Assembly: GCA_964624785.1 (NCBI GenBank)
Contig: CAZUXR010000001.1
Span: 213-64,212 of the forward strand
Source of the DNA: an uncultured Candidatus Saccharibacteria bacterium
Lineage (GTDB): Bacteria > Patescibacteriota > Saccharimonadia > Saccharimonadales > UBA10212
Direction of reading: 5' to 3'
DNA length: 64,000 nucleotides
The notes beneath the pieces were generated by a model, which worked only from the letters and a program-made list of their open reading frames with translations, did not search any database and was not told the DNA's origin. The translations under genes were made by a program, and so were the position numbers. Position 1 is the stretch's first letter; every line of letters starts with the position of its first letter. Below, piece after piece: positions 27,433-55,131 of the stretch.

Positions 27433-28887
27433 ATGAAATTAGGGTGGAATAGCAACGTAAAAGCAACTGACAGCGAAGCAGAACTTGCTCACATCACGCA
27501 GGAAATCTATAAACGCAACCTAGAACTATCCGAGCGCAACAAAACTCTGCTTTTATTGCAACATATCGACGAGGCGGTTTTAAGTTCAACCGGTCAGCTT
27601 AGCGCCGTAATTCAAACAATCACCGACTTGCTAATTAGCGAGGGCGAGTTTGGATTTGCATCGATTTACCTGGCTGGCAAAAGTAGTAGCCTTGGCACGG
27701 CGCGCGGCTTTAGCACGAGCAAAACCATCCGCCCCGAACGTTTGGATTTAATAAAAAATCAGTTTGGCGCGCTCAACCTTACTCCGTCAAAAGACAACGA
27801 TCTATCCTATGCCATGCTAAGCGGAGATATTCAGGTTATTACTAGTTTCCGAGGGTTCAGGCCAGAGATTTCGGAAGAAGACGACGCTTCGCTAAAGGCC
27901 CTGCTAGAGGTCGACACGTTCTTTATATGCCCCCTTAAGTCCACCGGCCAAAGCTTGGGCGTAATGATTATCGGTCTGGTAAAAACCGCCGCATCTGTAA
28001 GCGAATACAAGATGAACCTAATTAAACGCCTTACAAACTCAATTAGCATAGCCGTACAAAACTACCTACTCTACGAAGAGCTAGAAGTCGCTAGCGATAA
28101 ACTTACCGAGCAGAACGCCACCCTGCAAAAGCTGAATCATTTAAAAGATGATTTTATGTCTATGGCAACGCACCAGCTTGGCACACCAATGGCTGTTGTG
28201 GATGGGTATATTTCTACAGTTATTCACCCAACGCACGGCGCTAATGTTAATAAGGATGAGCTACTGGGCAAAGCGCTTGCACGTCTGCGGCTTATGAAGC
28301 GTTTGGTCGAGGATTTTCTAAATGTGAGTCGAATGGAAACTGGACGATTTATAATTACCCGCACGCCAACCGATCTAAATAAAATGGTAGAGCAGGAAGT
28401 CGAACTTCTCGCGCAAAAAGCCAAAGAAGAAAATATAGAATTAAAATACAAAAAACCTGATCATCAGGTGCCGGTAATTTCTATCGATGAGCAAAAAACC
28501 CGCCAAGCAATCATGAATTTGATAGACAATGCCATCTACTATTCACCCGGAGCTACCGTAACAGTCAGCCTAAAGTCAGATGAACAAAATATCACTTTTC
28601 AGGTAGAAGACAGCGGAATTGGAATCGATGAGGAATCGCAAAAAAACTTATTCACCAAATATTACCGTGCAGACAACGCTAAAAAACAACGCCCCGACGG
28701 CAGCGGAATCGGCCTGTTTTTGGTCAAAAAAGTTATACAAGCCCAGGGCGGCCGATTGATTTTTAACAGCCAGCTGGGCGTAGGATCAACTTTTGGATTT
28801 ATCTTGCCAATAAAAAATCCCCCTGAACCAGAACAAGATATAGGACTGCCCAGCGAGCCAAAAATGCAACCCGAAACAGAAATTTAA
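27433..28887 (+). CDS. cytoplasmic sensor histidine kinase (GAF-like, HisKA, HATPase_c)
   Basis: H-box FMSMATHQLGTPM, N-box NLIDNAIYYS, G1 DSGIGI and G2 GSGIGLFLV. No TM segment. Confidence 0.85.
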   Translation: MKLGWNSNVKATDSEAELAHITQEIYKRNLELSERNKTLLLLQHIDEAVLSSTGQLSAVIQTITDLLISEGEFGFASIYLAGKSSSLGTARGFSTSKTIRPERLDLIKNQFGALNLTPSKDNDLSYAMLSGDIQVITSFRGFRPEISEEDDASLKALLEVDTFFICPLKSTGQSLGVMIIGLVKTAASVSEYKMNLIKRLTNSISIAVQNYLLYEELEVASDKLTEQNATLQKLNHLKDDFMSMATHQLGTPMAVVDGYISTVIHPTHGANVNKDELLGKALARLRLMKRLVEDFLNVSRMETGRFIITRTPTDLNKMVEQEVELLAQKAKEENIELKYKKPDHQVPVISIDEQKTRQAIMNLIDNAIYYSPGATVTVSLKSDEQNITFQVEDSGIGIDEESQKNLFTKYYRADNAKKQRPDGSGIGLFLVKKVIQAQGGRLIFNSQLGVGSTFGFILPIKNPPEPEQDIGLPSEPKMQPETEI

Positions 28888-30413
28888 CTGTGAGTTTTTA
28901 GTTCCGCGACGGCATCCTCGCCAAAGTGTTTTTTGAGTCTGGCTCGGATGGAGCCGGGGTGGCGACCAAATTCCTCGGTTAATTTTTTGACTGTAATCGG
29001 CTTACCTGCAGAAAAGAACCCTACCAACCTAGCATCGTCATCCGCAGACCACGGTTTATATGCATTTGGATATTTTGAACGCATTTTATCCAGCTTGTCA
29101 TTCCAGCTCCCACTAGATTTTATTATGATCGGCTCCTTAGAACGCTTACGTGCGCTTTCTCTCAAATGTTCGAACTTTTTAGCATCAATAACTGACTTTT
29201 TGCGCAATGTTTTATCTATCTCGAGAGCCTCGGGGCTTACCCGAAGCGCCATTTGGTTAATCCCTGCCAGGCTCAAAGTGTCCAAGCTGCGCACTCGGCT
29301 TAATGCCACATAGCCCATGCCTTCCACAAACGCCCGGCGTAAATCAATCCGTGCAGCGTCCAATGTCATTCCCTGACTTTTGTGCACCGTGATCGCCCAG
29401 GCTAGCCGCAGCGGAATTTGGCTCAAAGACGCACGTTTTTTGTCACCGTCGCGTAGCTCCCACGACTCCGGCGTAATTACTAATTTGCGGCCGCTTTTAA
29501 GTTCAACTTTTGGGTAGCCCGTTCCCTCTTCAAAACCCACAACCGTGCCGAGCGATCCGTTGACATACTTTTTTTCCGGATTATTTTTTATGCACATAAT
29601 CAACGCGCCTTTTTTTAATGTAAGAGTTTCTGCCGCCAAACAAGCTCGCTTGAGTGATTCCACATAGCTGGCTTTTCCGGTGGTACTCATGTGATATTGG
29701 CGCTCTTCGCTATCTAGTTTATGAAGCTGGCTAGAGTTTAGCTCGTCTACATCTACGTTTGTGGTGTGCAGCTGCGTAGCTTCGCCGACGTCCGCACTTT
29801 GGCGCGAAAGCAAAAGTTCCGCGTGGTGTCGGCGTATATCATTGCCCCTCAGCGCGTTCAAAATTTCTAAAAACTCATCGTCGTTTTGGCGATGCTGTTC
29901 GCTCAAATAACAAACTACCGGGTCTAGTTCTTCCCATACAACTGAATTCACCACAAATTCGCCAAGCTCCTCGCCGCGCTTGCTTACCGGGGGCAGCTGG
30001 AAAAAGTCGCCGCAAATCACCACCTGTAAACCGCCAAAAGGTTCGTTGACTTTACGCACGCTTCGCGCAATCTGATCTACCATATCCAGGCGAAAATGAT
30101 GCAGCATAGAAATCTCATCAATAATCAAAACATCTGTTTTAGCGATTGTGTCACGTCGGCCTTTAGTTAAATTTTCTATGATCCCAGGCGCCAGCTGGTT
30201 GTGGATTCCTATTCCGCTCCACGAATGTATGGTGTTGCCGTTTAGATGAGTCGCAGCCAATCCTGTCGTTGCCGTAACAGATACATGTTTGCCACTAGCC
30301 CGGGCGCGGCGAATAAAATCATTCAGAACAAAAGTCTTGCCAGAGCCTGCTGGCCCGGTCAGCAAAACGTTCTGCCCAGCTAACAGAATCTCTAGCGCAA
30401 GTTCTTGATCCAT
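28884..30413 (-). CDS. PIF1/RecD-family AAA_30 helicase with C-terminal helicase-associated HTH tail
   Basis: Walker A LLTGPAGSGKTF, Walker B VLIIDEISML, and the C-terminal motif ITVHKSQGMT. Confidence 0.85.
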   Translation of the reverse strand: MDQELALEILLAGQNVLLTGPAGSGKTFVLNDFIRRARASGKHVSVTATTGLAATHLNGNTIHSWSGIGIHNQLAPGIIENLTKGRRDTIAKTDVLIIDEISMLHHFRLDMVDQIARSVRKVNEPFGGLQVVICGDFFQLPPVSKRGEELGEFVVNSVVWEELDPVVCYLSEQHRQNDDEFLEILNALRGNDIRRHHAELLLSRQSADVGEATQLHTTNVDVDELNSSQLHKLDSEERQYHMSTTGKASYVESLKRACLAAETLTLKKGALIMCIKNNPEKKYVNGSLGTVVGFEEGTGYPKVELKSGRKLVITPESWELRDGDKKRASLSQIPLRLAWAITVHKSQGMTLDAARIDLRRAFVEGMGYVALSRVRSLDTLSLAGINQMALRVSPEALEIDKTLRKKSVIDAKKFEHLRESARKRSKEPIIIKSSGSWNDKLDKMRSKYPNAYKPWSADDDARLVGFFSAGKPITVKKLTEEFGRHPGSIRARLKKHFGEDAVAELKTHS

Positions 30414-30419
30414 CTATGA

Positions 30420-30580
30420 ATAGTTTATCGTTTTTGGTTTATGGTTGATAGTTTTTTTCAAAAATCCGAATCTCCCAGATTATTTCCGGGGTTTAATTCT
30501 GGAAATATGGGTTCTGGCTTCCTGCTTTTTTGCTCTGGACTACCGGCTCTCAGCTACAAGCTAATCCGAACGGTTTTTAT
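30420..30580. repeat. phase-locked heptanucleotide mosaic, copy H
   Basis: About 23 consecutive 7-mers in one register. The blocks are ATAGTTT ATCGTTT TTGGTTT ATGGTTG ATAGTTT, then AAATCCG AATCTCC, then TTCTGGA AATATGG GTTCTGG CTTCCTG, then GCTCTGG ACTACCG GCTCTCA GCTACAA GCTAATC. It overlaps the DUF167 stop. Confidence 0.7.
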
Positions 30581-41294: not shown

Positions 41295-42349
41295 TACTTT
41301 TTAGGCGTGCCCAAACCGTTATGAACGGCCTTTTGATAGAAGTAATAACCAGGAATCAACTGGATGCTCATATTTAGAACTCTATACATGATCGTGACTG
41401 GGATGCTCAAAGATGCTGGAATTCCGCAGGCCACCAAAACAGCCGTCATTAAGCCTTCGTAAATACCTATTCCTGCTGGCAAAACAGAAATCAATCCGGC
41501 AAAGTTGGCGACCGCGTAAGCAATCACCACCGCGCCAAAATTAACAAAGTGTCCAAAGGCCACGTAGACAGTGTAAACCGCCGCCACTTCGGTAATATTG
41601 GCAATCGTAAGATACATAAACGGCTTTTTTAGCTGCGACCAGTCTTTCCGATAGATATTATAGTTTTCGTGCAGTTCTATAAAAGTCTTTTGTGCTCCTT
41701 CAATACTAATAGTTTCTGGATGTTTGGGACGGACAAGATGAACGATTCTGTTAATAAGTTTTGTCACAAAAGTTAAAAAGCTGTTAATACGGCTGCGGCT
41801 TTCTACAATATAAACGCCAACAAAAGTACCAACGATCACAAGGGTTACGATTGTGCTGGTAATGAGCATTATTAGATTGTTGACATGCCCGCCGATGGCT
41901 AAAACCAAAAGGCCAAAAATCAAAATTGGCTGAAAGCTAATGTATAGAATGAGCAACTTCATCACCTGCGCGAGCGTTGACTGGGCGGTTGTTATGCTCA
42001 TGGTTTTTGTACGGACATTAAAGTAGCTAATGCCGCTCACCCCACCGCTTGGCAAAATATGATTCACAAAGTTAAGCTCCAGCATCAACTTAAACATATC
42101 TTTGTATTCGACTTTTTTGCCTAGAGTCTTAAACTGGTTCTGGTGCAATTTGGCGTAAACATGATAGTTGAGCCACTCGATTGGGATCAAAAGAAAAAGT
42201 ACTAGTGAGTGTACTTTTCCAAAATCTCTGATCACCTGGTGGATTTGGCTGCGAAGAGTGTATATCAAAATAGCTAGTGCCAGGAATGACAGCACATTCA
42301 GAATCAACTTCCAGCGGGATTTCTTGAGTAGTACTTGTTCGGGCTCCAT
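41294..42349 (-). CDS. flippase-like / lysylphosphatidylglycerol synthase TM-region (UPF0104) family membrane protein
   Basis: About 8 TM with the N-terminal pattern KKSRWKLILNVLSFLALAILIY...; the family assignment is by overall pattern only. Confidence 0.65.
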   Translation of the reverse strand: MEPEQVLLKKSRWKLILNVLSFLALAILIYTLRSQIHQVIRDFGKVHSLVLFLLIPIEWLNYHVYAKLHQNQFKTLGKKVEYKDMFKLMLELNFVNHILPSGGVSGISYFNVRTKTMSITTAQSTLAQVMKLLILYISFQPILIFGLLVLAIGGHVNNLIMLITSTIVTLVIVGTFVGVYIVESRSRINSFLTFVTKLINRIVHLVRPKHPETISIEGAQKTFIELHENYNIYRKDWSQLKKPFMYLTIANITEVAAVYTVYVAFGHFVNFGAVVIAYAVANFAGLISVLPAGIGIYEGLMTAVLVACGIPASLSIPVTIMYRVLNMSIQLIPGYYFYQKAVHNGLGTPKK

Positions 42350-42398
42350 ATCTAATTATTATAACTATAAATGTTTAATATGGGGTAAAATTATACAA

Positions 42399-43655
42399 AT
42401 GGATAAAATTAAAACAGTTGCAATTCTTGGCCGGCAGAAGTCGCTGGGACTTGCCGAACTAGAAAGTCTTTATGGCGCGGAGCATGTGCGCTCCTTGGGC
42501 GACAACGCCGCTGTTTTAGATATTCCAGCCACGGAAATGGATTTTAGACGGCTTGGCGGCGCTGTAAAGCTTGCCCAGGTACTGGCCGAACTACCTACCA
42601 CCAACTGGCCGGACATGGTTAAGTTTTTGGGCGATAAAATTCCTGAGCATATTCAATACATGCCAGAAGGCACCTTTACACTTGGGGTAAGTGTTTATGG
42701 AATAGTGGTTAAGCTAGAAACCTTGAACAGAAATTTACTTGGAATCAAAAAAATTATTAAAGCTGCTGGCAAATCAACGCGAATTGTACCTAATAAATCG
42801 CTGGGACTTAACAGCGCCCAAGTCCTGCACAACAAACTCACAACCAAGGGTGGCTGGGAGCTAATATATATTCGCGATGGCGAGCACACCTTGCTGGCAC
42901 AAACTTTATTTATTCAAGATATCGAGGCCTACGCAGCGCGAGATCAAGCCCGTCCAAAACGCGATGCCCGAGTGGGAATGCTACCACCAAAGCTAGCGCA
43001 GATTATGGTCAACCTTGCCAGTGGCAAGGTCGGGTCACCAGTCACTAGTCACCAGTCGACAGTCACCGGACAAACGACTGGCGACCGACCACTAGTGACT
43101 AACAAGCCTTTGGTTTTGCTAGATCCATTTTGTGGCACCGGCGTAATCCTACAAGAAGCGCTATTAATGGGCTATACAGTCTATGGTACGGATGCGGAAC
43201 CGCGAATGATAGATTATACCAAAGCCAATTTAGACTGGCTTGATTTGCGTGGCGCCAGCAAAGAAGGGCGGATTGAACTAGAAGTAGGCGACGCTACAAA
43301 ACATCAATGGGCTCCACCCCCCAATCTTGTAGCCAGCGAAACATACCTAGGCCGGCCGTTCACTTCCCCGCCGCGACCCGAAATTTTAACCCAAAATATC
43401 AGCGACTGCAATGTAATAATTAAAAAGTTCTTGAGCAATATCCACTCGCAATTAGAAAGCGGGACAAGATTATGCCTGGCTGTGCCGGCTTGGCAAGTTC
43501 AGCCCGGGGTATTTAAGCACTTACCTCTTATTGACCAAGTTGGCAATCTGGGATATAATCGACTGAGCTTTGTTCATGTCAAAGATCAGGATTTGATCTA
43601 TTACAGACCAGACCAAATCGTTGGACGTGAACTAATCATATTAGCTAGAGTATAG
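42399..43655 (+). CDS. THUMP-like / UPF0020-type RNA (guanine-N2 or adenine-N6) methyltransferase
   Basis: Motif I LLDPFCGTGVIL preceded by PPKLAQIMVNLA. Start at the ATG at 42399; the upstream ORF extension overlaps the convergent 41294 gene. Confidence 0.7.
   Translation: MDKIKTVAILGRQKSLGLAELESLYGAEHVRSLGDNAAVLDIPATEMDFRRLGGAVKLAQVLAELPTTNWPDMVKFLGDKIPEHIQYMPEGTFTLGVSVYGIVVKLETLNRNLLGIKKIIKAAGKSTRIVPNKSLGLNSAQVLHNKLTTKGGWELIYIRDGEHTLLAQTLFIQDIEAYAARDQARPKRDARVGMLPPKLAQIMVNLASGKVGSPVTSHQSTVTGQTTGDRPLVTNKPLVLLDPFCGTGVILQEALLMGYTVYGTDAEPRMIDYTKANLDWLDLRGASKEGRIELEVGDATKHQWAPPPNLVASETYLGRPFTSPPRPEILTQNISDCNVIIKKFLSNIHSQLESGTRLCLAVPAWQVQPGVFKHLPLIDQVGNLGYNRLSFVHVKDQDLIYYRPDQIVGRELIILARV
43034..43103. 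repeat. in-frame heptanucleotide array inside the methyltransferase gene
   Basis: GTCACCA GTCACTA GTCACCA GTCGACA GTCACCG GACAAAC GACTGGC GACCGAC CACTAGT GACTAAC. It encodes SPVTSHQSTVTGQTTGDRPLVTN just before SAM motif I. Confidence 0.75.
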
Positions 43656-43944: not shown

Positions 43945-43950
43945 AAACTA

Positions 43951-44097
43951 GCTCTAAGCTAAGAGCCCAGAGCTTAGAGCGGGCTTCAAGGTTTATGGTT
44001 TGTAGTTTATGGTTTTTGGGCTAACGCCGAACGCTAGCTTTTTTCATTCTCTATTCTCAATTCTCTAATTCCTGCTCTTAAGCTAAGGACTCTTAGC
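43951..44097. repeat. phase-locked heptanucleotide mosaic, copy A
   Basis: 21 consecutive 7-mers in one register. The blocks are GCTCTAA GCTAAGA GCCCAGA GCTTAGA, then TTATGGT TTGTAGT TTATGGT TTTTGGG, then CTAACGC CGAACGC, then CTCTATT CTCAATT CTCTAAT, then CTTAAGC TAAGGAC TCTTAGC. The first block forms a 10-bp hairpin (43951-43980). Confidence 0.8.
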
Positions 44098-45707
44098 TAT
44101 AGTGCTGCTTTTATAAGGCCTAGGAACAACGGGTGGGCTCGGCCGGGTCGAGAGCGAAATTCCGGGTGAGCCTGAGTGGTTACAAAATACGGATGATCAA
44201 TGGCTTCTACCATTTCTACTAGCTGCCCGTCGGGCGATACGCCGGATTCTATAATTCCCCACGATTTATAATCCTTACGATAATCGTTATTGGCTTCGTA
44301 GCGGTGGCGATGACGCTCGATAATATTTTCGGCTCCGTAGAGTTTACGAGCCTTTGTTCCAGATTTGATTACGCAGGGATAATCGCCTAGGCGCATCGAC
44401 GCACCGGTGTTTTCTTTGCCTTTTTGATCTTCCATGGTGCTTACAACGGCGTGTTTAGGTTTAGGATCAAACTCTGTAGAATTAGCACCGGCTAAGCCCG
44501 CTCGGCGAGCAGCAGCAATGATCCCAACCTGCAGCCCCAGACAAATCCCTAGGTATGGCAATTTATTATCAAGAGCGAAGGCGGCGGCGGCAATTTTGCC
44601 CTCTACCCCGCGCCCACCAAATCCGCCAGGAACAATGATCCCGTCTAGGTCGGCCAAAACATTAACGGCTTTTTTGTCTTTTTCTAGGTCTTCGGCATTA
44701 ACCCATACAATATCTACATTGCATTCGTTAGCCCAGGCTGCGCTTCGCACCGCCTCGAATACAGACATATAGGTGTCTTGATTGTCGATATACTTAGCTA
44801 CCACGCCAATTCGTACGGTTTTGCGGTAATTAGCTAGTGCAGACTTAACCGTGCGCTCCCAGCTCTTCATATCGGGCTTATGAGCCTTTAGACCTAGGCG
44901 CTTAACGATAATATCGGCGATATTGGTGGACTCTAGAGTTAGCGGCACCTGATAGACAGTTTGAGCATTTGGCATCAGCACGATTGCTTCTTTGTCCACG
45001 CCACTAAATAGGCTTAGTTTGGGTATAACCGCTTTAGCTGGGGGCTTAGATTCGCTTCGGGCTGCCAGAACATCTGGCACAATGCCAAGTCCGCGAAGCT
45101 CACGGACAGAATTTTGCGCTGGCTTAGTTTTAAACTCACCACTGGCGCCCAGATATGGAATGTAAACAACGTGCACGAACATGCAGTTTTCTAGCCCAAC
45201 GCGCATGGACATTTCGCGGATGGCTTCTACAAAGCTCAATGATTCGTAATCGCCAACCGTGCCGCCAATTTCTGCGATGTGCACGTCAAAACCTTTGCCA
45301 GCACGCTCGATATACCCTTGGATGGCAGCAGTTAAGTGCGGAATAATTTGTACGTCTTCGCCTTTATATTTACCGGCGCGTTCGTCGCTGATAACTTTTT
45401 GCAGGACTTGCCCGCTCATCAAGCTGCTGCTTTGGGTCAGCTCCTCGTCTAAAAATCTTTCGTAGTGGCCAAGGTCCAAGTCTGTTTCTGCACCGTCTTT
45501 GGTTACAAAAACTTCGCCGTGTTCACGCGGATTTAACAGCCCAGCATCAACGTTTAGGTACGGGTCGCACTTTTGGATGTTAACGGATATTCCGCGGGCT
45601 TTTAAAATGGTGCCGATAGAAGCAGCCGTAATGCCTTTGCCAACGCCGGATAAAACCCCGCCGGTCACAAAAATATACTTAGTCTGCGGCTTAGTCCCTA
45701 GCGCCAT
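44097..45707 (-). CDS. pyrG: CTP synthase
   Basis: N-terminal KYIFVTGGVLSGVGKG, GATase domain GICLGLQ, and HPEF near the C-terminus. 536 aa. Confidence 0.95.
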   Translation of the reverse strand: MALGTKPQTKYIFVTGGVLSGVGKGITAASIGTILKARGISVNIQKCDPYLNVDAGLLNPREHGEVFVTKDGAETDLDLGHYERFLDEELTQSSSLMSGQVLQKVISDERAGKYKGEDVQIIPHLTAAIQGYIERAGKGFDVHIAEIGGTVGDYESLSFVEAIREMSMRVGLENCMFVHVVYIPYLGASGEFKTKPAQNSVRELRGLGIVPDVLAARSESKPPAKAVIPKLSLFSGVDKEAIVLMPNAQTVYQVPLTLESTNIADIIVKRLGLKAHKPDMKSWERTVKSALANYRKTVRIGVVAKYIDNQDTYMSVFEAVRSAAWANECNVDIVWVNAEDLEKDKKAVNVLADLDGIIVPGGFGGRGVEGKIAAAAFALDNKLPYLGICLGLQVGIIAAARRAGLAGANSTEFDPKPKHAVVSTMEDQKGKENTGASMRLGDYPCVIKSGTKARKLYGAENIIERHRHRYEANNDYRKDYKSWGIIESGVSPDGQLVEMVEAIDHPYFVTTQAHPEFRSRPGRAHPLFLGLIKAAL

Positions 45708-50387: not shown

Positions 50388-50906
50388 TTATATTCTGGGT
50401 AGAGTAACGCCAGTTTTAAGAGACACTTCTTTTGCCCAACTGATCATAATGGCAAGTTTTTGCTCTAGCTCTAAAGATTCTTGAGCTTTAAGATTGGGAT
50501 GTCGTTTTTCTAGAGCAACTATCCGCATATAAATTTCTTTGATATCGCTTTCTACGCCCATCAGGCGATTGTCGATTTTTTCCATCCACTCGGCCATTTC
50601 CTGGTGCCCGCGCTCCAGGCTGGTCATTCGACCTTCCAGGCTTCCCATGCGCCCTTCTATATTTTCCATACGTCCATCAAGACTCTCAAAGCGCTGGTCA
50701 ATCTGCTCAAAACGCTGGTCAATCTGCTCAAAACGCTGGTCGACTTGCTCAAAACGTTTATCCATATTTATAGCCAAAGCACCGATCGATTCGGCAACAC
50801 TTGTAGCGAGATCACTGATCGACTCAGCAATATCGTTCACACTTGCCGTAAGAGTGCTTATCGACTTGGTAATGTCATCCTTATTTGTGCTTCCCGTAGT
50901 TGCCAT
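50388..50906 (-). CDS. coiled-coil protein with tandem 7-aa (21-nt) repeats
   Basis: FEQVDQR FEQIDQR FEQIDQR FESLDGR MENIEGR MGSLEGR MTSLERG. The underlying 21-nt tandem repeats span about 50620-50765. Confidence 0.6.
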   Translation of the reverse strand: MATTGSTNKDDITKSISTLTASVNDIAESISDLATSVAESIGALAINMDKRFEQVDQRFEQIDQRFEQIDQRFESLDGRMENIEGRMGSLEGRMTSLERGHQEMAEWMEKIDNRLMGVESDIKEIYMRIVALEKRHPNLKAQESLELEQKLAIMISWAKEVSLKTGVTLPRI

Positions 50907-51492: not shown

Positions 51493-52575
51493 TTAGATGT
51501 TGTGTTCGAGCCAGGATTCGATTAGGGGGTCTAGGTTGCCGTCTAGGACGGTTTGGGGGTCGGAAGTTTCGTAGCCGGTGCGCAGGTCTTTGACTTGTTT
51601 ATAGGGGTGTAAAACGTAGCTGCGGATCTGATTGCCCCACTCTGCCGATTGATTTGGGCCTTTAAGCTCACTCAACTTTTCGGCGTGCTGTTGCAGTTGC
51701 AAGGCCGCCAAGCGGGAGCGCAAAATCGTCATGGCTGTTTCTTTGTTTTGAACCTGAGAACGCTCGTTTTGAATACTTACCGTTAGGCCGGTTGGAACGT
51801 GCGTTATGCGCACAGCCGAGTCGGTGGTATTTACTGATTGGCCGCCGTGGCCGCCAGCACGATAAACGTCAACTTTAAGATCATTGTCATCAATTTCTAG
51901 CTCGCCAGGTTTGTCGATTTTTGGCATTACCTCTACCTTGGCAAAACTGGTTTGGCGCAGGTTGTCGGAATTATAAGGGCTCAACCGCACCAGGCGGTGC
52001 ACACCGTGCTCGCCCGCTAAACGGCCGTACAAAAAATTACCGCCGGAAAGTTCGAGTACAGCGCTTTTTATCCCGGCTTCTTCTCCAGAAGTTTGAGAAT
52101 CGGTTTGGACTTTTAGCCCGTGCTTTTCGGAGTAGCGAACATACATGCGCAGCAGCATAGCAGCCCAATCCTGAGCATCGGTGCCGCCCGCGCCGGCGTA
52201 AATTCCTAAAATTACATCGTGGTTGTCGTAGGGGCCACTAAAGCGAAGCTCGCGCTTAAGGGACGAGAATTGAGAATTGAGAATTGAGAATTTAGCTTCG
52301 AGTTCGGGCTCTAGGCTGGAATCATTTAGGCTAATTAATTCCGCTAGTTCGCGGGCGTCTTTTTGCAGGTTTTCCCAGGGTTGAATGCGAGAACTAAGCG
52401 CCGATTCTTGCTTACTTATATCCTGAGCCTTAGTGCTATCTTGCCAAAAATCCGGCTCCGCTATAGCAGTTCGCAAACCCGCTAATTCCGACTTTAGTTC
52501 ATCTAATTTTAGCTGAGCAACCGTCTGGGTAATGTCTTTATTAAGCTCACTAGCCCGCCTTTTAAGCTGTTCCAC
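51493..52575 (-). CDS. prfB: peptide chain release factor 2 (uninterrupted ORF, no programmed frameshift)
   Basis: GGQ motif (GGHGGQSVNTTDSAVRITH). The RF2-type recognition loop reads LVRLSPYNS (SPY at the SPF position). Confidence 0.9.
   Translation of the reverse strand: MEQLKRRASELNKDITQTVAQLKLDELKSELAGLRTAIAEPDFWQDSTKAQDISKQESALSSRIQPWENLQKDARELAELISLNDSSLEPELEAKFSILNSQFSSLKRELRFSGPYDNHDVILGIYAGAGGTDAQDWAAMLLRMYVRYSEKHGLKVQTDSQTSGEEAGIKSAVLELSGGNFLYGRLAGEHGVHRLVRLSPYNSDNLRQTSFAKVEVMPKIDKPGELEIDDNDLKVDVYRAGGHGGQSVNTTDSAVRITHVPTGLTVSIQNERSQVQNKETAMTILRSRLAALQLQQHAEKLSELKGPNQSAEWGNQIRSYVLHPYKQVKDLRTGYETSDPQTVLDGNLDPLIESWLEHNI
52265..52292. repeat. four perfect GAGAATT heptamers (AATTCTC on the coding strand) inside prfB
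   Basis: gagaatt occurs 4 times at 52265-52292 and encodes AKFSILNSQFS in RF2 domain 1. The same 7-mer occurs in the intergenic mosaics. Confidence 0.9.
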
Positions 52576-52663: not shown

Positions 52664-52747
52664 GCGTACAGCGGCCAGGGGTTAGCGGACAGGAATTTCG
52701 GATCTGAACGCTAAACGCTATACGCAGTACGCTAGCCGGTTTATATA
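52664..52747. repeat. heptanucleotide mosaic, copy D (partial)
   Basis: GCGTACA GCGGCCA GGGGTTA GCGGACA ... GAACGCT AAACGCT ATACGCA GTACGCT AGCCGGT TTATATA. The AACGCTA block shares about 30 nt with copy B. Confidence 0.65.
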
Positions 52748-52831: not shown

Positions 52832-53473
52832 CTACAGCAGCAAACCGGCGCGCTCAGCTCTTTTCTGGAGTCGGTTGAAGTGACCGAGCAGGATGCGCGC
52901 TTCTTCTGGGTCCACCATCGTCTGGTCGACGCTGTTGAGCCCGTCGAGTCCGCGACCCAGCTCAAGTAAACCTTTACGGATCAGCCCGAGGGTGATCTCT
53001 CTGCGGTGAGTATCGGCATACTCACGGTCGGAGCCTGACAGCATGCGGATGACCTCGTCGTGGATCTTGTTGGAGTCGGCATCGAAGTCGAGCAGGATGC
53101 GCGAGGCCACACCATCGTCCTCGCGCACCAGCCCGAGCAGGATGTGCTCGGTGCCGATGTAGTTGTGCCCCAGGGCCAGCGCCTCGCGAAACGCCAGCCC
53201 GAGGACCTTCTTGGCCCTCGGGGTGAACGGGATCTGCCAGAAGGTGACCTCCTCGCCGGAACCGACGGCTCGCACGATCTGGACGCGCACGCGCTCGACG
53301 GTGATGTCGAGGCTCTGAAGGACCCGCGCGGCCAGGCCTTCCTCCTCGCGGAGGAGCCCAAGCAGAATGTGCTCGGTGCCGATGTAGTTGTGCTTGAGGG
53401 TTCTGGCTTCTTCCTGCGCAAGCATGACCACTTGCCGCGCCCGTTCGGTATACCTTTCGAACAACTTTCTCAC
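52832..53473 (-). CDS. stand-alone Clp N-terminal (double Clp_N repeat) domain protein, ClpC1-NTD-like, in high-GC islet 6
   Basis: FERYTERARQVVMLAQEEARTLKHNYIGTEHILLGLL ... IPFTPRAKKVLGLAFREALALGHNYIGTEHILLGLV closely parallels the actinobacterial ClpC1 N-terminus. There is no AAA+ module. The likely true start is the TTG at 53464, preceded by AGGTGA, giving MFERY... nt 53101-53160 hand count is 41/60 G+C. Confidence 0.8.
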   Translation of the reverse strand: MRKLFERYTERARQVVMLAQEEARTLKHNYIGTEHILLGLLREEEGLAARVLQSLDITVERVRVQIVRAVGSGEEVTFWQIPFTPRAKKVLGLAFREALALGHNYIGTEHILLGLVREDDGVASRILLDFDADSNKIHDEVIRMLSGSDREYADTHRREITLGLIRKGLLELGRGLDGLNSVDQTMVDPEEARILLGHFNRLQKRAERAGLLL

Positions 53474-53645
53474 CTGTCTTTCGCTAGTCTTGCTTGTAGG
53501 GATTTTTGAGGATTTTAACTAAACGCAAAATACACGTTTGATCAAAAAGAACCTCATATCTATTTATAAAAAGTGCTAAAACCCCGATAAACCTCGAAGG
53601 CAATAGCTATATTATAAAACAGCCATCAGCAAAAAGCAAAGATCC

Positions 53646-53799
53646 GGCTTTGAGTTATGGTTTGTAGTTTATGGTTTATGGGCTAACCCTGAACACTAAA
53701 CGCTATCCGCTGTACGCTTTTCTTCATTCTCAATTCCCCATTCTGAATTCTAAATTCCTGGTATTTAAGCTCTGGGCTCTCAGCTCTTAGCTTCCCAGA
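53646..53799. repeat. phase-locked heptanucleotide mosaic, copy B
   Basis: 22 consecutive 7-mers in one register. The blocks are AGTTATG GTTTGTA GTTTATG GTTTATG, then GGCTAAC CCTGAAC ACTAAAC GCTATCC GCTGTAC GCTTTTC, then TTCATTC TCAATTC CCCATTC TGAATTC TAAATTC, then TTAAGCT CTGGGCT CTCAGCT CTTAGCT. It overlaps the last codons of the M16 gene. Confidence 0.8.
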
Positions 53800-55075
53800 G
53801 GGGTTGGATAGTTTCGTTCAGCTTATCCGTCAAAGCGCGAGTTTTACTATCACCCAGCAGCCCTAACCCGCCAATTCCATCACTAAACATGCGCTCCGAT
53901 GCCCGCACAATACGGCTTTTAGTTATGGCTTTAATGCGTTTTGGAATAGCGTCGTAATCGTCGATTACATTATCAAAGTAGTAGCGGCTAGAGTAGCCGG
54001 ACATAATTCCGCCAACAGTCTGGCCACTGCGCTGGTAGCGCCCTAATAGGTACTGCTTTGCGGCCTCTAAATCTTCTTCGCTGATTTCCCCTGCCCGCAC
54101 GCGGTTGACCTCACGGACGATGATTTCAAACAGCGGCAAAGCGTTTTTAGGAATCACCTGCGCGCCAAACCACCATACCGAACTGTCTTTTGTGGTGTCT
54201 AAATTAGAGCTCATGGAATAAACCAGTCCGCGCTCGCGGGCTTCGCCCAAAATACGTGAATTTAGAGTAGCAGTTAGCATAGTGTTGACCAGCCCAAGCG
54301 CGTCCCATTCCGAGTCCGAAAAGCGATGATTAGCAAACGCGTCAATATAAAAATGCGTAGTATTAACAGATGGGCGCGACACAAAAACGGGCTTTGGTGG
54401 AGCACTCGGAAGTTCTGATGGTAACTCAATTCGCTCGCGGCCTTTTGGTAGTCCGATATTTTCTAGCAGTTGTTTGATTTGGCTGGTGCGCCCCCGCAAA
54501 TTACCGGCAATTATAAACCGCATATTGCGGGTAGTGTGGGTGTTTTTGTAATGCTCTACAACATCTTTTAGCTTAACGTTTTTCATTAGTTTTAGGCATT
54601 CGCGGTCGGTCATGGCCAGCAGCCCATAAGCCTGACGAGTCACAGCATGCAAGTGCAAAAAGTGGTTGTTTGCCCGAGCCGCACGCTCGTCTTTCACGTT
54701 ACCAAATTCGGCCTTAAATTCGTCGCGCAAAAAAAGCGGCTTGCTAATTGCGGTAAGCATTAGCTCTAGCACGCGTTGCCACTCAAAGTCGGCGGCTTCG
54801 GCTTCGTAGGTTACATGATATGTGCTGGTGTGTGCATTAGAATACGCACCGTTTTTTTCGAACTCTGCCTGAAACGCCCGCGCTTTTGGATATTGCTTAT
54901 TAGCGCCAAGCAGTACATGTTCCATTAAATGCGGAGCTTCCCATTTGTCTTTTGGTACCAGGTATTCGCCCGCTCTAAAGTTAAATTCATAATCCATAAC
55001 AGTGGCGCCAGGCACATCGATCAAAATACCTTTTGCGCCATTTTTTAGTTCAATCTCGGTTGCGGTGTGCTTCAT
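53780..55075 (-). CDS. M16-family (pitrilysin/insulinase-like) zinc peptidase
   Basis: Inverted zinc motif HLMEH (HxxEH) near the N-terminus. 431 aa with two-lobed M16 architecture. Confidence 0.85.
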   Translation of the reverse strand: MKHTATEIELKNGAKGILIDVPGATVMDYEFNFRAGEYLVPKDKWEAPHLMEHVLLGANKQYPKARAFQAEFEKNGAYSNAHTSTYHVTYEAEAADFEWQRVLELMLTAISKPLFLRDEFKAEFGNVKDERAARANNHFLHLHAVTRQAYGLLAMTDRECLKLMKNVKLKDVVEHYKNTHTTRNMRFIIAGNLRGRTSQIKQLLENIGLPKGRERIELPSELPSAPPKPVFVSRPSVNTTHFYIDAFANHRFSDSEWDALGLVNTMLTATLNSRILGEARERGLVYSMSSNLDTTKDSSVWWFGAQVIPKNALPLFEIIVREVNRVRAGEISEEDLEAAKQYLLGRYQRSGQTVGGIMSGYSSRYYFDNVIDDYDAIPKRIKAITKSRIVRASERMFSDGIGGLGLLGDSKTRALTDKLNETIQPLWEAKS

Positions 55076-55131
55076 GGAATTAGAATCTCGAATTTGGATT
55101 ATGGAATTTGGAATTAAGATTTATCGAATTT
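55076..55131. repeat. heptanucleotide array, copy C (GAATNNN block)
   Basis: GGAATTA GAATCTC GAATTTG GATTATG GAATTTG GAATTAA GATTTAT CGAATTT fills the M16-secA intergenic gap. It is the reverse-complement type of the NNNATTC block of copy B. Confidence 0.75.

Follow-up and report, generated by a model that had tools for sequence, protein, structure and literature searches.

The prfB locus and its heptamer tract

The stretch of DNA analyzed here, referred to as the window, comprises 64,000 nucleotides from an uncultured Candidatus Saccharibacteria bacterium and harbors a gene for release factor 2 (RF2), prfB, in which a perfect tandem repeat of a seven-nucleotide unit is embedded. The gene lies on the minus strand at positions 51493-52575 and forms a single uninterrupted open reading frame (ORF) of 360 amino acids with a GTG start. 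It was identified as full-length prfB by TIGR00020 (436.5 bits against a cutoff of 370), the PCRF (PF03462) and RF-1 (PF00472) domains were both matched, and the best matches in the PDB are RF2 chains with E-values of about 1e-90. The GGQ motif is present and occurs as GGHGGQ. The programmed +1 frameshift site CUU UGA C near codon 26 of prfB, through which RF2 is autoregulated, is absent from this gene, given that it consists of one uninterrupted ORF. The stop-codon recognition tripeptide is SPY (residues 199-201, positions 51973-51981 on the minus strand) instead of the near-universal SPF; among 121 close RF2 homologues, SPF was found in 117 and SPY in four. When collections of genomes and metagenomes were searched, the nearest RF2 genes proved to be only 60-71% identical, and all of them belong to Saccharimonadales. 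In a collection of 5.8 billion proteins the RF2 of the window is a singleton whose next best match is 71% identical, and no conspecific of the window genome was found in the databases searched (this protein collection and an exact-protein match to contigs).

The tract occupies positions 52265-52292, where the plus strand reads four perfect GAGAATT units and the coding (minus) strand four perfect AATTCTC units. It starts at the second base of codon 95, ends at the second base of codon 104 and is translated as K95-F-S-I-L-N-S-Q-F-S104. Tandem Repeats Finder reported a period of 7, 4.0 copies and 100% matches. A fifth, degenerate unit (GTCCCTT) completes a five-unit block of 35 nt at 52258-52292 on the minus strand; in the codon-aligned DNA this block starts at the same base as the tract and runs through codon 106, and its residues, over codons 95-106, are K F S I L N S Q F S S L. 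The double unit, the 14-mer GAGAATTGAGAATT, has four matches in the window at no more than one mismatch compared with 0.05 expected, three of them overlapping inside the tract, and this count was reached in none of 100 dinucleotide-preserving shuffles. The single 7-mer, on the other hand, is not over-represented in the window outside the tract. An earlier note, made from the sequence of the window, had reported four perfect AATTCTC units inside prfB, and these are real: four copies of a short unit stand head to tail here beyond chance, as in any tandem simple-sequence repeat. The same note had pointed out that the array lies in its stop-free orientation, which we confirm. Read from the sequence, the reversed orientation with GAGAATT as the coding strand yields TGA in every frame, and only one orientation of such an array is possible in a gene because the reverse always contains TGA, the complement of the serine codon TCA.

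Recurrence of the block in orthologous genes

Our comparison covered 80 genome orthologues, 160 loci from genomes and metagenomes (named here by L and a number), and 163 prfB genes in total when the window and loci L161 and L162 are included. Among these loci, L001 is on contig JBBDKW010000017.1, L002 on JBEKOJ010000001.1 (776 kb) and L006 on JACPKF010000009.1, while the block-free L019 is on the complete chromosome OY970322.1. The repeat had been taken for an insertion in RF2, but this view had to be rejected. No gaps were found across residues 70-125 in any of the 80 genome orthologues, and across residues 60-140 a single one of the 160 loci shows any. The repeat segment is likewise free of gaps in the 120 closest proteins from the database and in the alignment to the solved RF2 chains of Bacillus (residues ~84-116). 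Given these ungapped alignments, the heptamers occupy codons that are common to every RF2. The statement that prfB carries a piece of a repeat family thus holds for the family relationship of the unit and fails for the notion of inserted DNA. It had also been proposed that orthologues from repeat-free genomes with the same residues in non-periodic DNA would speak against this statement. Here the outcome is divided: in orthologues from loci without the repeats the DNA is indeed non-periodic and the number of residues and the hydrophobic positions are the same, but the surface residues differ (E/K/Q/D as opposed to S/I/N/S/Q).

A five-unit heptamer block in the same register was identified in 19 of the 163 prfB genes, i.e., in the window and 18 others. 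The period-7 score, computed on the codon-aligned 42 nt of codons 94-107, is bimodal, with values of at least 0.6 in 17 of the 160 loci as well as in the window, L161 and L162, and values of 0.1-0.4 in nearly all others. The units are lineage-specific and homogeneous within each array. The AATTCTC type of the window is shared by L006, L118, L161 and L162, whereas L002 (whose block is identical in L082 and L084) has AACTCTC, three copies of AGCTCTC and AGCTCTA, and variants of AGCTCTC are found in L001, L090 and L081. CACTCTC together with one AGCTCTC makes up the blocks of L100 and L106. Three copies of GAGTCTC occur in L149, with AAGTCTC on one flank and a degenerate unit on the other, and L043 combines three copies of AGATATC with two of AGATCTC. 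Units of the AGTACTC type are present in L053 and L120, AGCTAAC or AGCTATC in L097 and L099, and the GAATCTC type in L007. The degenerate blocks of L024, L118 and L007 look like decay intermediates.

At the protein level, the pattern (Q/K)(L/F)SxLxSQ(L/F)SxLK is found in about a quarter of the 120 closest proteins. Serine in the L002 block is written with TCA, AGC and TCT in a manner that preserves the 7-nt period, and neither protein-level selection nor codon bias can explain this block, because three different serine codons keep the 7-nt register. This supports the conclusion that the tract is a heptamer repeat at the level of DNA rather than a by-product of the protein sequence.

Block-bearing and block-free genes appear to differ by a discrete replacement, since the block diverges between them while the flanks remain similar. 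Among pairs of block-bearing genes, DNA identity is 81-92% in the 36-nt block, compared with 49-76% over the 90 nt upstream and 68-73% over the whole gene. In pairs of one block-bearing and one block-free gene, the block is 33-47% identical and the flanks 43-86%.

Copy-number polymorphism was not observed: all 19 block-bearing genes have five units with no indels in the segment, and no out-of-frame or length-variant alleles were found among the 163 prfB genes. Three independent assemblies of the L002 species, which differ by 0-4 single-nucleotide polymorphisms over 7-9 kb, are unchanged in copy number both in the prfB block and in three flanking arrays. Within the 163 genes, heptamer arrays are confined to two sites, residues 90-109 (18 hits) and the vicinity of residue 150 (two hits). 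The second site spans codons 149-160, equivalent to about 52096-52131 in the window, with units of the GCTGAAA type in L083 and L162 and a weaker array in L081, and it encodes W-A-E-S-S-K-L-K-A-E-S-L-D. It is likewise length-neutral, and its heptamer run was formed from a sequence that was already partly periodic; the window itself is non-periodic there.

Fit of the block to the RF2 helix

An AlphaFold2 model was computed for the RF2 of the window on an alignment of 55 sequences; the start codon was omitted from the query, so that protein numbering equals model numbering plus one. The mean predicted local distance difference test (pLDDT) score is 82. In this model protein residues 86-109 (85-108 of the model) form one helix with block means of about 91-94. 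This helix, encoded at 52249-52320 on the minus strand, contains the tract and is the last one of domain 1, the helical domain at the N-terminus. Whether or not an orthologue has the block, positions 88, 92, 96, 99, 103, 106 and 110 are hydrophobic, in most cases in over 90% of the sequences; position 99 reaches 67% in the block-free ones. These seven positions follow the a/d pattern of a heptad, and the a and d positions of the heptad encoded by the array are 96, 99, 103 and 106.

The correspondence between a 7-nt unit and a 7-residue heptad arises from the fact that 7 and 3 are coprime, so that three units (21 nt) encode seven residues and are read in all three phases. The resulting heptad is F-S-I-L-N-S-Q in the window and L-S-A-L-S-S-Q or similar elsewhere. 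For a unit written as N1N2N3N4C5T6C7, the observed register makes N3N4C5 the a codon (TTC for Phe, CTC for Leu, ATC for Ile, TAC for Tyr) and C5T6C7 the d codon (CTC, Leu), with TCA (Ser) at b and CA(A/G) (Gln) at g. Residues at the surface change from E/K/Q/D in block-free orthologues to S/A/I/N in block-bearing ones. The array thereby reproduces the structural heptad and alters surface positions only.

Heptamer arrays in the window and around other prfB genes

The tract in prfB is one of many period-7 arrays in the window, of which there are 10 at a threshold of at least 15 matches out of 21 compared with none in shuffled sequence; periods of 5, 6 and 8-11 are at chance level, unlike period 7. 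Eight of the 10 arrays are intergenic and two are coding, namely those in prfB and in a methyltransferase gene (43029-43069). Intergenic arrays include those at 30417-30457, 43983-44020, 53651-53720 and 55083-55124, as well as an array of the AACGCTA type at 52702-52735 (not assigned to a strand), 127-160 nt upstream of the prfB start.

Two regions, mosaic A (about 43950-44110) and mosaic B (about 53640-53800), are homologous composites with ordered heptamer blocks. The order is a GGTTTAT array, GCTAAC..GAACGCTA, an ATTCTCN array and an AGCTCTN array, and prfB has the ATTCTC unit alone. On the plus strand, the ATTCTCN block of mosaic A (44037-44074) contains the prfB unit on the opposite strand with 19 of 20 nt identical, as does that of mosaic B (53726-53758) with 23 of 26 nt identical. 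In a sensitive self-BLAST these were the only significant matches of the prfB segment in the window (44046-44065, 20 nt, 95%, E=0.001; 53726-53751, 26 nt, 88%, E=0.018), which bears out the earlier claim that the prfB unit is the same as that of the intergenic mosaics. The AGCTCTN block of mosaic B (53764-53793, plus strand) has a unit that equals the prfB unit of L001, L002 and L090.

A further claim, that the sequence AGAGCCC..GAAGCT next to the tract is a mosaic-type block, could not be sustained. The segment in question, CCTAGAGCCCGAACTCGAAGCTA at 52294-52316 on the minus strand, is ordinary coding sequence (L-E-P-E-L-E-A) outside the repeat, and AGAGCCC occurs six times in the window against 5.7 expected and was rejected as a chance 7-mer. 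The mosaic 14-mer AGAGCCCAGAGCTT has exact matches in mosaics A and B and none in prfB even at three mismatches.

Beyond the window, heptamer arrays were found in the flanks of 14 of 17 block-bearing loci but of only 14 of 143 others (Fisher p=4e-10; the loci are not fully independent, as L002, L082 and L084 represent one species). Their density in the flanks is 0.31 per kb at block-bearing loci and 0.044 per kb at the others. Since flanking arrays are far more common at block-bearing loci, the block in prfB is a feature of heptamer-rich lineages. Unit families, and not the period alone, are conserved across lineages, because the window, L106 and L103 share the AACGCTA / GTACGCT family, which is found at 52702-52735 in the window, at 602-638 in L106 (also just upstream of prfB) and in the flanks of L103. 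Taken together, the tract in prfB is a heptanucleotide microsatellite, in frame and length-neutral, which imitates a heptad helix and recurs in heptamer-rich Saccharimonadales.

The mosaics show some additional features. A and B share a near-identical core of about 45 nt, …TTATGGTTTGTAGTTTATGGTTT[T/A]TGGGCTAAC…GAAC[G/A]CTA, followed by the arrays of the ATTCTC and AGCTCT types, and each is located just downstream of a minus-strand gene (pyrG and an M16 peptidase gene, respectively). An inverted repeat, AGCTCTAAGCT…AGCTTAGAGC, is present at the start of mosaic A. The 71-nt spacer between the genes for SecA and the M16 peptidase is a heptamer array throughout (55076-55131 in the window). In L120, ten perfect TAGGTTA units at 24-107 abut the ATG of prfB, and the array at 30417-30457 in the window stops 4 nt short of the ATG of a gene for a PIF1-like helicase, which suggests that heptamer arrays reside in 5' leaders. 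This helicase gene is located at 28884-30413 on the minus strand of this small genome; Pif1 helicases act on repeat- or structure-prone DNA.

The second coding array, of the GTCACCA type, lies in the plus-strand methyltransferase gene (RMKL/UPF0020-like, ORF 42168-43655). It coincides with an insertion of 23-24 residues (…KVGSPVTSHQSTVTGQTTGDRPLVTNKP…) relative to the syntenic orthologue of L161, directly before the S-adenosylmethionine-binding motif LLDPFCGTG. This array adds extra DNA, in contrast to the block in prfB.

Origin of the block

We contend, with a probability of roughly 0.6, that a lineage-specific and genome-wide process which creates and homogenizes 7-nt arrays overwrote codons 95-106 of prfB, and that the block is a tolerated by-product of this process rather than a functional module or an inserted element. 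A bias of replication or repair in these lineages would generate and homogenize 7-nt arrays everywhere. Either slipped-register repair by one unit or a double template switch may be responsible, in which a strand would move to a template 7 nt off and back again. As judged from the end products, such a process would copy a unit onto its neighbor with no net change in length and would make sense of the perfect copies, of units that differ between lineages and of the origin of the second site. Within prfB, only the segment between the conserved anchors E91-L92 and L106-K107 would tolerate the formation of an array, and selection would discard changes in length, loss of the a/d hydrophobic residues and the stop-containing orientation. 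Length-changing products would be removed because gaining or losing one unit shifts the frame of an essential gene, and three units amount to two extra helical turns.

The same arithmetic bears on the conservation of the block. A homogenized array has no silent sites, because, from copy to copy, each position of the unit falls on all three positions of a codon. This lack of silent sites would account for the high conservation of the block DNA without any function at the nucleic-acid level.

Several points weigh against this explanation. The mechanism is read from its end products, with no mutational intermediate observed. The high nucleotide conservation of the block could, after all, reflect a nucleic-acid-level function, and the exact match between the unit of the window and its own mosaics speaks for an ectopic donor no less than for purely local slippage. 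In addition, the block is distributed patchily on a neighbor-joining tree of RF2 with the block masked, where 16 block-bearing leaves require 12 Fitch changes compared with 15.3 for random labels; this tree is star-like (10-14 Fitch changes over 30 bootstraps), and a single gene is too weak to polarize gains and losses. L162, for instance, is nearest to the block-free L098, yet its block is 92% identical to that of the more distant L006. Such a patchy pattern could instead be the mark of a patch passed on by recombination, or of ectopic conversion that took place more than once.

A corrected version of the idea in the earlier note is that the intergenic heptamer mosaics overwrote the prfB segment, by ectopic gene conversion or by replacement of a patch. 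A periodic array such as (AATTCTC)n would serve as the homeologous donor, microhomology would anchor a short conversion tract, and only length-neutral, stop-free and heptad-compatible outcomes would survive. This is supported by the identity of the prfB unit in the window with the ATTCTCN blocks of mosaics A and B as its sole significant matches there, by the AGCTCTC unit of L001 and L002, which is another block type of the same mosaics, and by the resemblance of presence and absence to a discrete 35-nt replacement between conserved flanks. The methyltransferase array, coinciding with an insertion of 23-24 amino acids, also demonstrates that arrays can enter genes. However, prfB contains no mosaic sequence beyond the unit itself, its four units in the window are perfect while the mosaic copies are degenerate, and the second site in prfB clearly arose by homogenization of a partly periodic sequence. 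At the other loci, the prfB units match their own flanking arrays (best 3-8 mismatches out of 14) no better than those of other genomes (median 5-7), although with 1-3 arrays per locus this comparison has low power. We therefore regard ectopic conversion as an unlikely, albeit far from negligible, source of the block.

Horizontal exchange, i.e., short-patch homologous recombination of the block-bearing prfB segment among Saccharimonadales, would explain the patchy distribution of one old block and is compatible with its origin by homogenization. The case for it comes from L162 and L006, whose blocks share even the irregular AATTCCG AGTTCTC while the 90 nt upstream are only 53% identical, and from the flanks of L162, which resemble those of the block-less L098 (71-76%). 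The irregular bases (GAG TTC) are, on the other hand, ancestral Q/E-F codons and may simply have been retained; concerted evolution without silent sites also slows the divergence of the block, and the single-gene tree is poorly resolved. Exchange of this kind seems improbable as an explanation of the pattern.

A stronger form of the homogenization account can also be envisaged, namely an active and dedicated mechanism, in place of ordinary slippage, that would write or homogenize heptamers through templated or strongly register-biased repair or synthesis in length-neutral patches of about 35 nt, coding DNA included, with codons 95-106 of prfB as a recurrent, independent target. We give this little credence. 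Were it true, such tracts could make RF2 easy to lose by a slip of one unit, which may bear on the reassignment of UGA in sister Patescibacteria.

It is more doubtful still that the block is a functional element, either as an on/off switch of RF2 similar to the one in neuO (see below) or as a DNA or RNA site acting in cis, through a heptamer-binding factor or antisense pairing with GAGAAUU transcripts of the mosaics, to regulate a prfB that lacks +1 frameshift autoregulation. The unit length in the coding region is not a multiple of three, the gene in the window has no programmed frameshift, and between block-bearing lineages conservation at the DNA level is higher in the block than elsewhere in the gene, for which the lack of silent sites under concerted evolution offers an explanation without function. 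Against a switch, none of the 19 block-bearing genes departs from the reading frame or from five units, three near-identical assemblies are unchanged, four to five units are few for slippage to be efficient, and the protein concerned, RF2, is an essential one with a housekeeping role. Against a site acting in cis, the tract is predicted to be unpaired when folded with 40-nt flanks, the region has no excess folding (z=+0.6), an Rfam scan of the whole window at gathering thresholds matched no family, and the units vary between lineages. On the prfB-sense strand the mosaics A and B do read as GAGAAT-type sequence, complementary to the tract over 19 of 20 nt, but the flanks of the other block-bearing loci showed no arrays with such complementarity, and antisense pairing as a conserved mechanism was dropped.

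Finally, the view that the periodicity is due to chance or follows from a heptad protein sequence combined with codon bias is hardly credible, since, despite the protein-level heptad (21-nt) pattern in the helix of all orthologues, none of 100 shuffles reached the observed tandem match, the period-7 score is 0.1-0.4 in block-free orthologues that have the same heptad, mixed synonymous serine codons keep the 7-nt register and the block is associated with intergenic arrays (p=4e-10).

Relation to known repeats and significance

The closest analogue of the prfB block is the heptanucleotide variable number tandem repeat in neuO of the E. coli K1 phage CUS-3, in which 3-53 units of 5'-AAGACTC-3' are present depending on the strain (PMC13001214). 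The gene is phase-variable and in frame only if the copy number is divisible by three; roughly two in three genomes carry it out of frame (PMC13001214). Both cases represent a tandem heptanucleotide in coding DNA that is read in three phases, with three units giving seven residues and with a stop-free orientation, and the unit of neuO fits the same ANNNCTC pattern as the prfB units, with CTC (Leu), TCA (Ser) and CAA (Gln) codons. The tract in prfB thus shares with loci of the neuO type a unit of 7 nt, not a multiple of three, inside an ORF. The neuO repeat is nevertheless a variable switch of a non-essential, phage-borne enzyme and extends the protein, whereas the prfB block is fixed at five units, in frame, in an essential core gene, where it replaces pre-existing sequence.

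Intergenic simple sequence repeats (SSRs) of heptamers have been described as GGGNATC in Xanthomonas and Nostoc and as STRR heptamers in Calothrix (PMC4692102 and work cited there), and heptamers are over-represented in many bacterial genomes for a reason that is not understood (PMC4692102). Like the arrays described here, these SSRs are lineage-specific, genome-wide period-7 repeats that are mostly intergenic near gene ends and under-represented in coding DNA. They are, however, G-rich and capable of forming G-quadruplexes, while the units of Saccharimonadales are A/T-rich and diverse (GGTTTAT, AACGCTA, ATTCTCA, AGCTCTN), and AATTCTC or GAGAATT has no G-tract as in a G-quadruplex SSR. The arrays of Saccharimonadales, unlike those SSRs, also form composite mosaics and, in the present case, take up a conserved set of codons in an essential gene. 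No report linking Saccharibacteria or Patescibacteria with heptamer repeats was found in the literature searched, which is an absence of evidence only.

The programmed +1 frameshift site of prfB is similarly a nucleotide-level feature embedded in the RF2 coding sequence, but it is a regulatory signal and is absent here, and the heptamer block at codons 95-106 has no sign of recoding. The block can further be compared with the concerted evolution, or cryptic simplicity, of coding micro- and minisatellites, the usual examples of which are length-variable and located in low-complexity linkers. In both, units are homogeneous within a lineage and different between lineages, and point mutations of single units are erased. 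In prfB, by contrast, the block never varies in length, belongs to a structured helix and is built from a unit whose length is coprime to three.

The main value of the block is that it constitutes an alignable record of the formation and turnover of a heptamer array. Given that it lies in a universally conserved gene, the state before the repeat, the perfect arrays and the decay intermediates can be compared base by base. This comparison shows that arrays need not expand to form or turn over and can do so through replacement that leaves the length unchanged. The case also reveals that a 7-nt repeat in DNA can coincide with a 7-residue heptad, so that an essential helix is encoded by a microsatellite without silent sites. 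Such tracts are frameshift hazards and potential traps for assembly and annotation in Patescibacteria genomes, and they may mark a lineage-specific peculiarity of replication or repair.

Neighboring genes

The surroundings of prfB differ in two respects from those of its closest relative, L161. A gene for a 213-amino-acid protein with two Clp_N repeats (52832-53473, minus strand) has a G+C content of 62-65%, compared with 43-53% in its surroundings, and is missing from the otherwise syntenic locus of L161 that comprises SecA, the M16 peptidase, prfB and ftsE/X. It was probably acquired horizontally, and its G+C content and sequence style look actinobacterial. On the other side of prfB, an ORF for a 172-amino-acid coiled-coil protein (50388-50906, minus strand) carries tandem repeats at 50614-50756 that encode EQ(V/I)DQRF heptads, with a period of 21 nt and not of 7; it lies within a stretch of roughly 1.3 kb between prfB and ftsE that L161 lacks.

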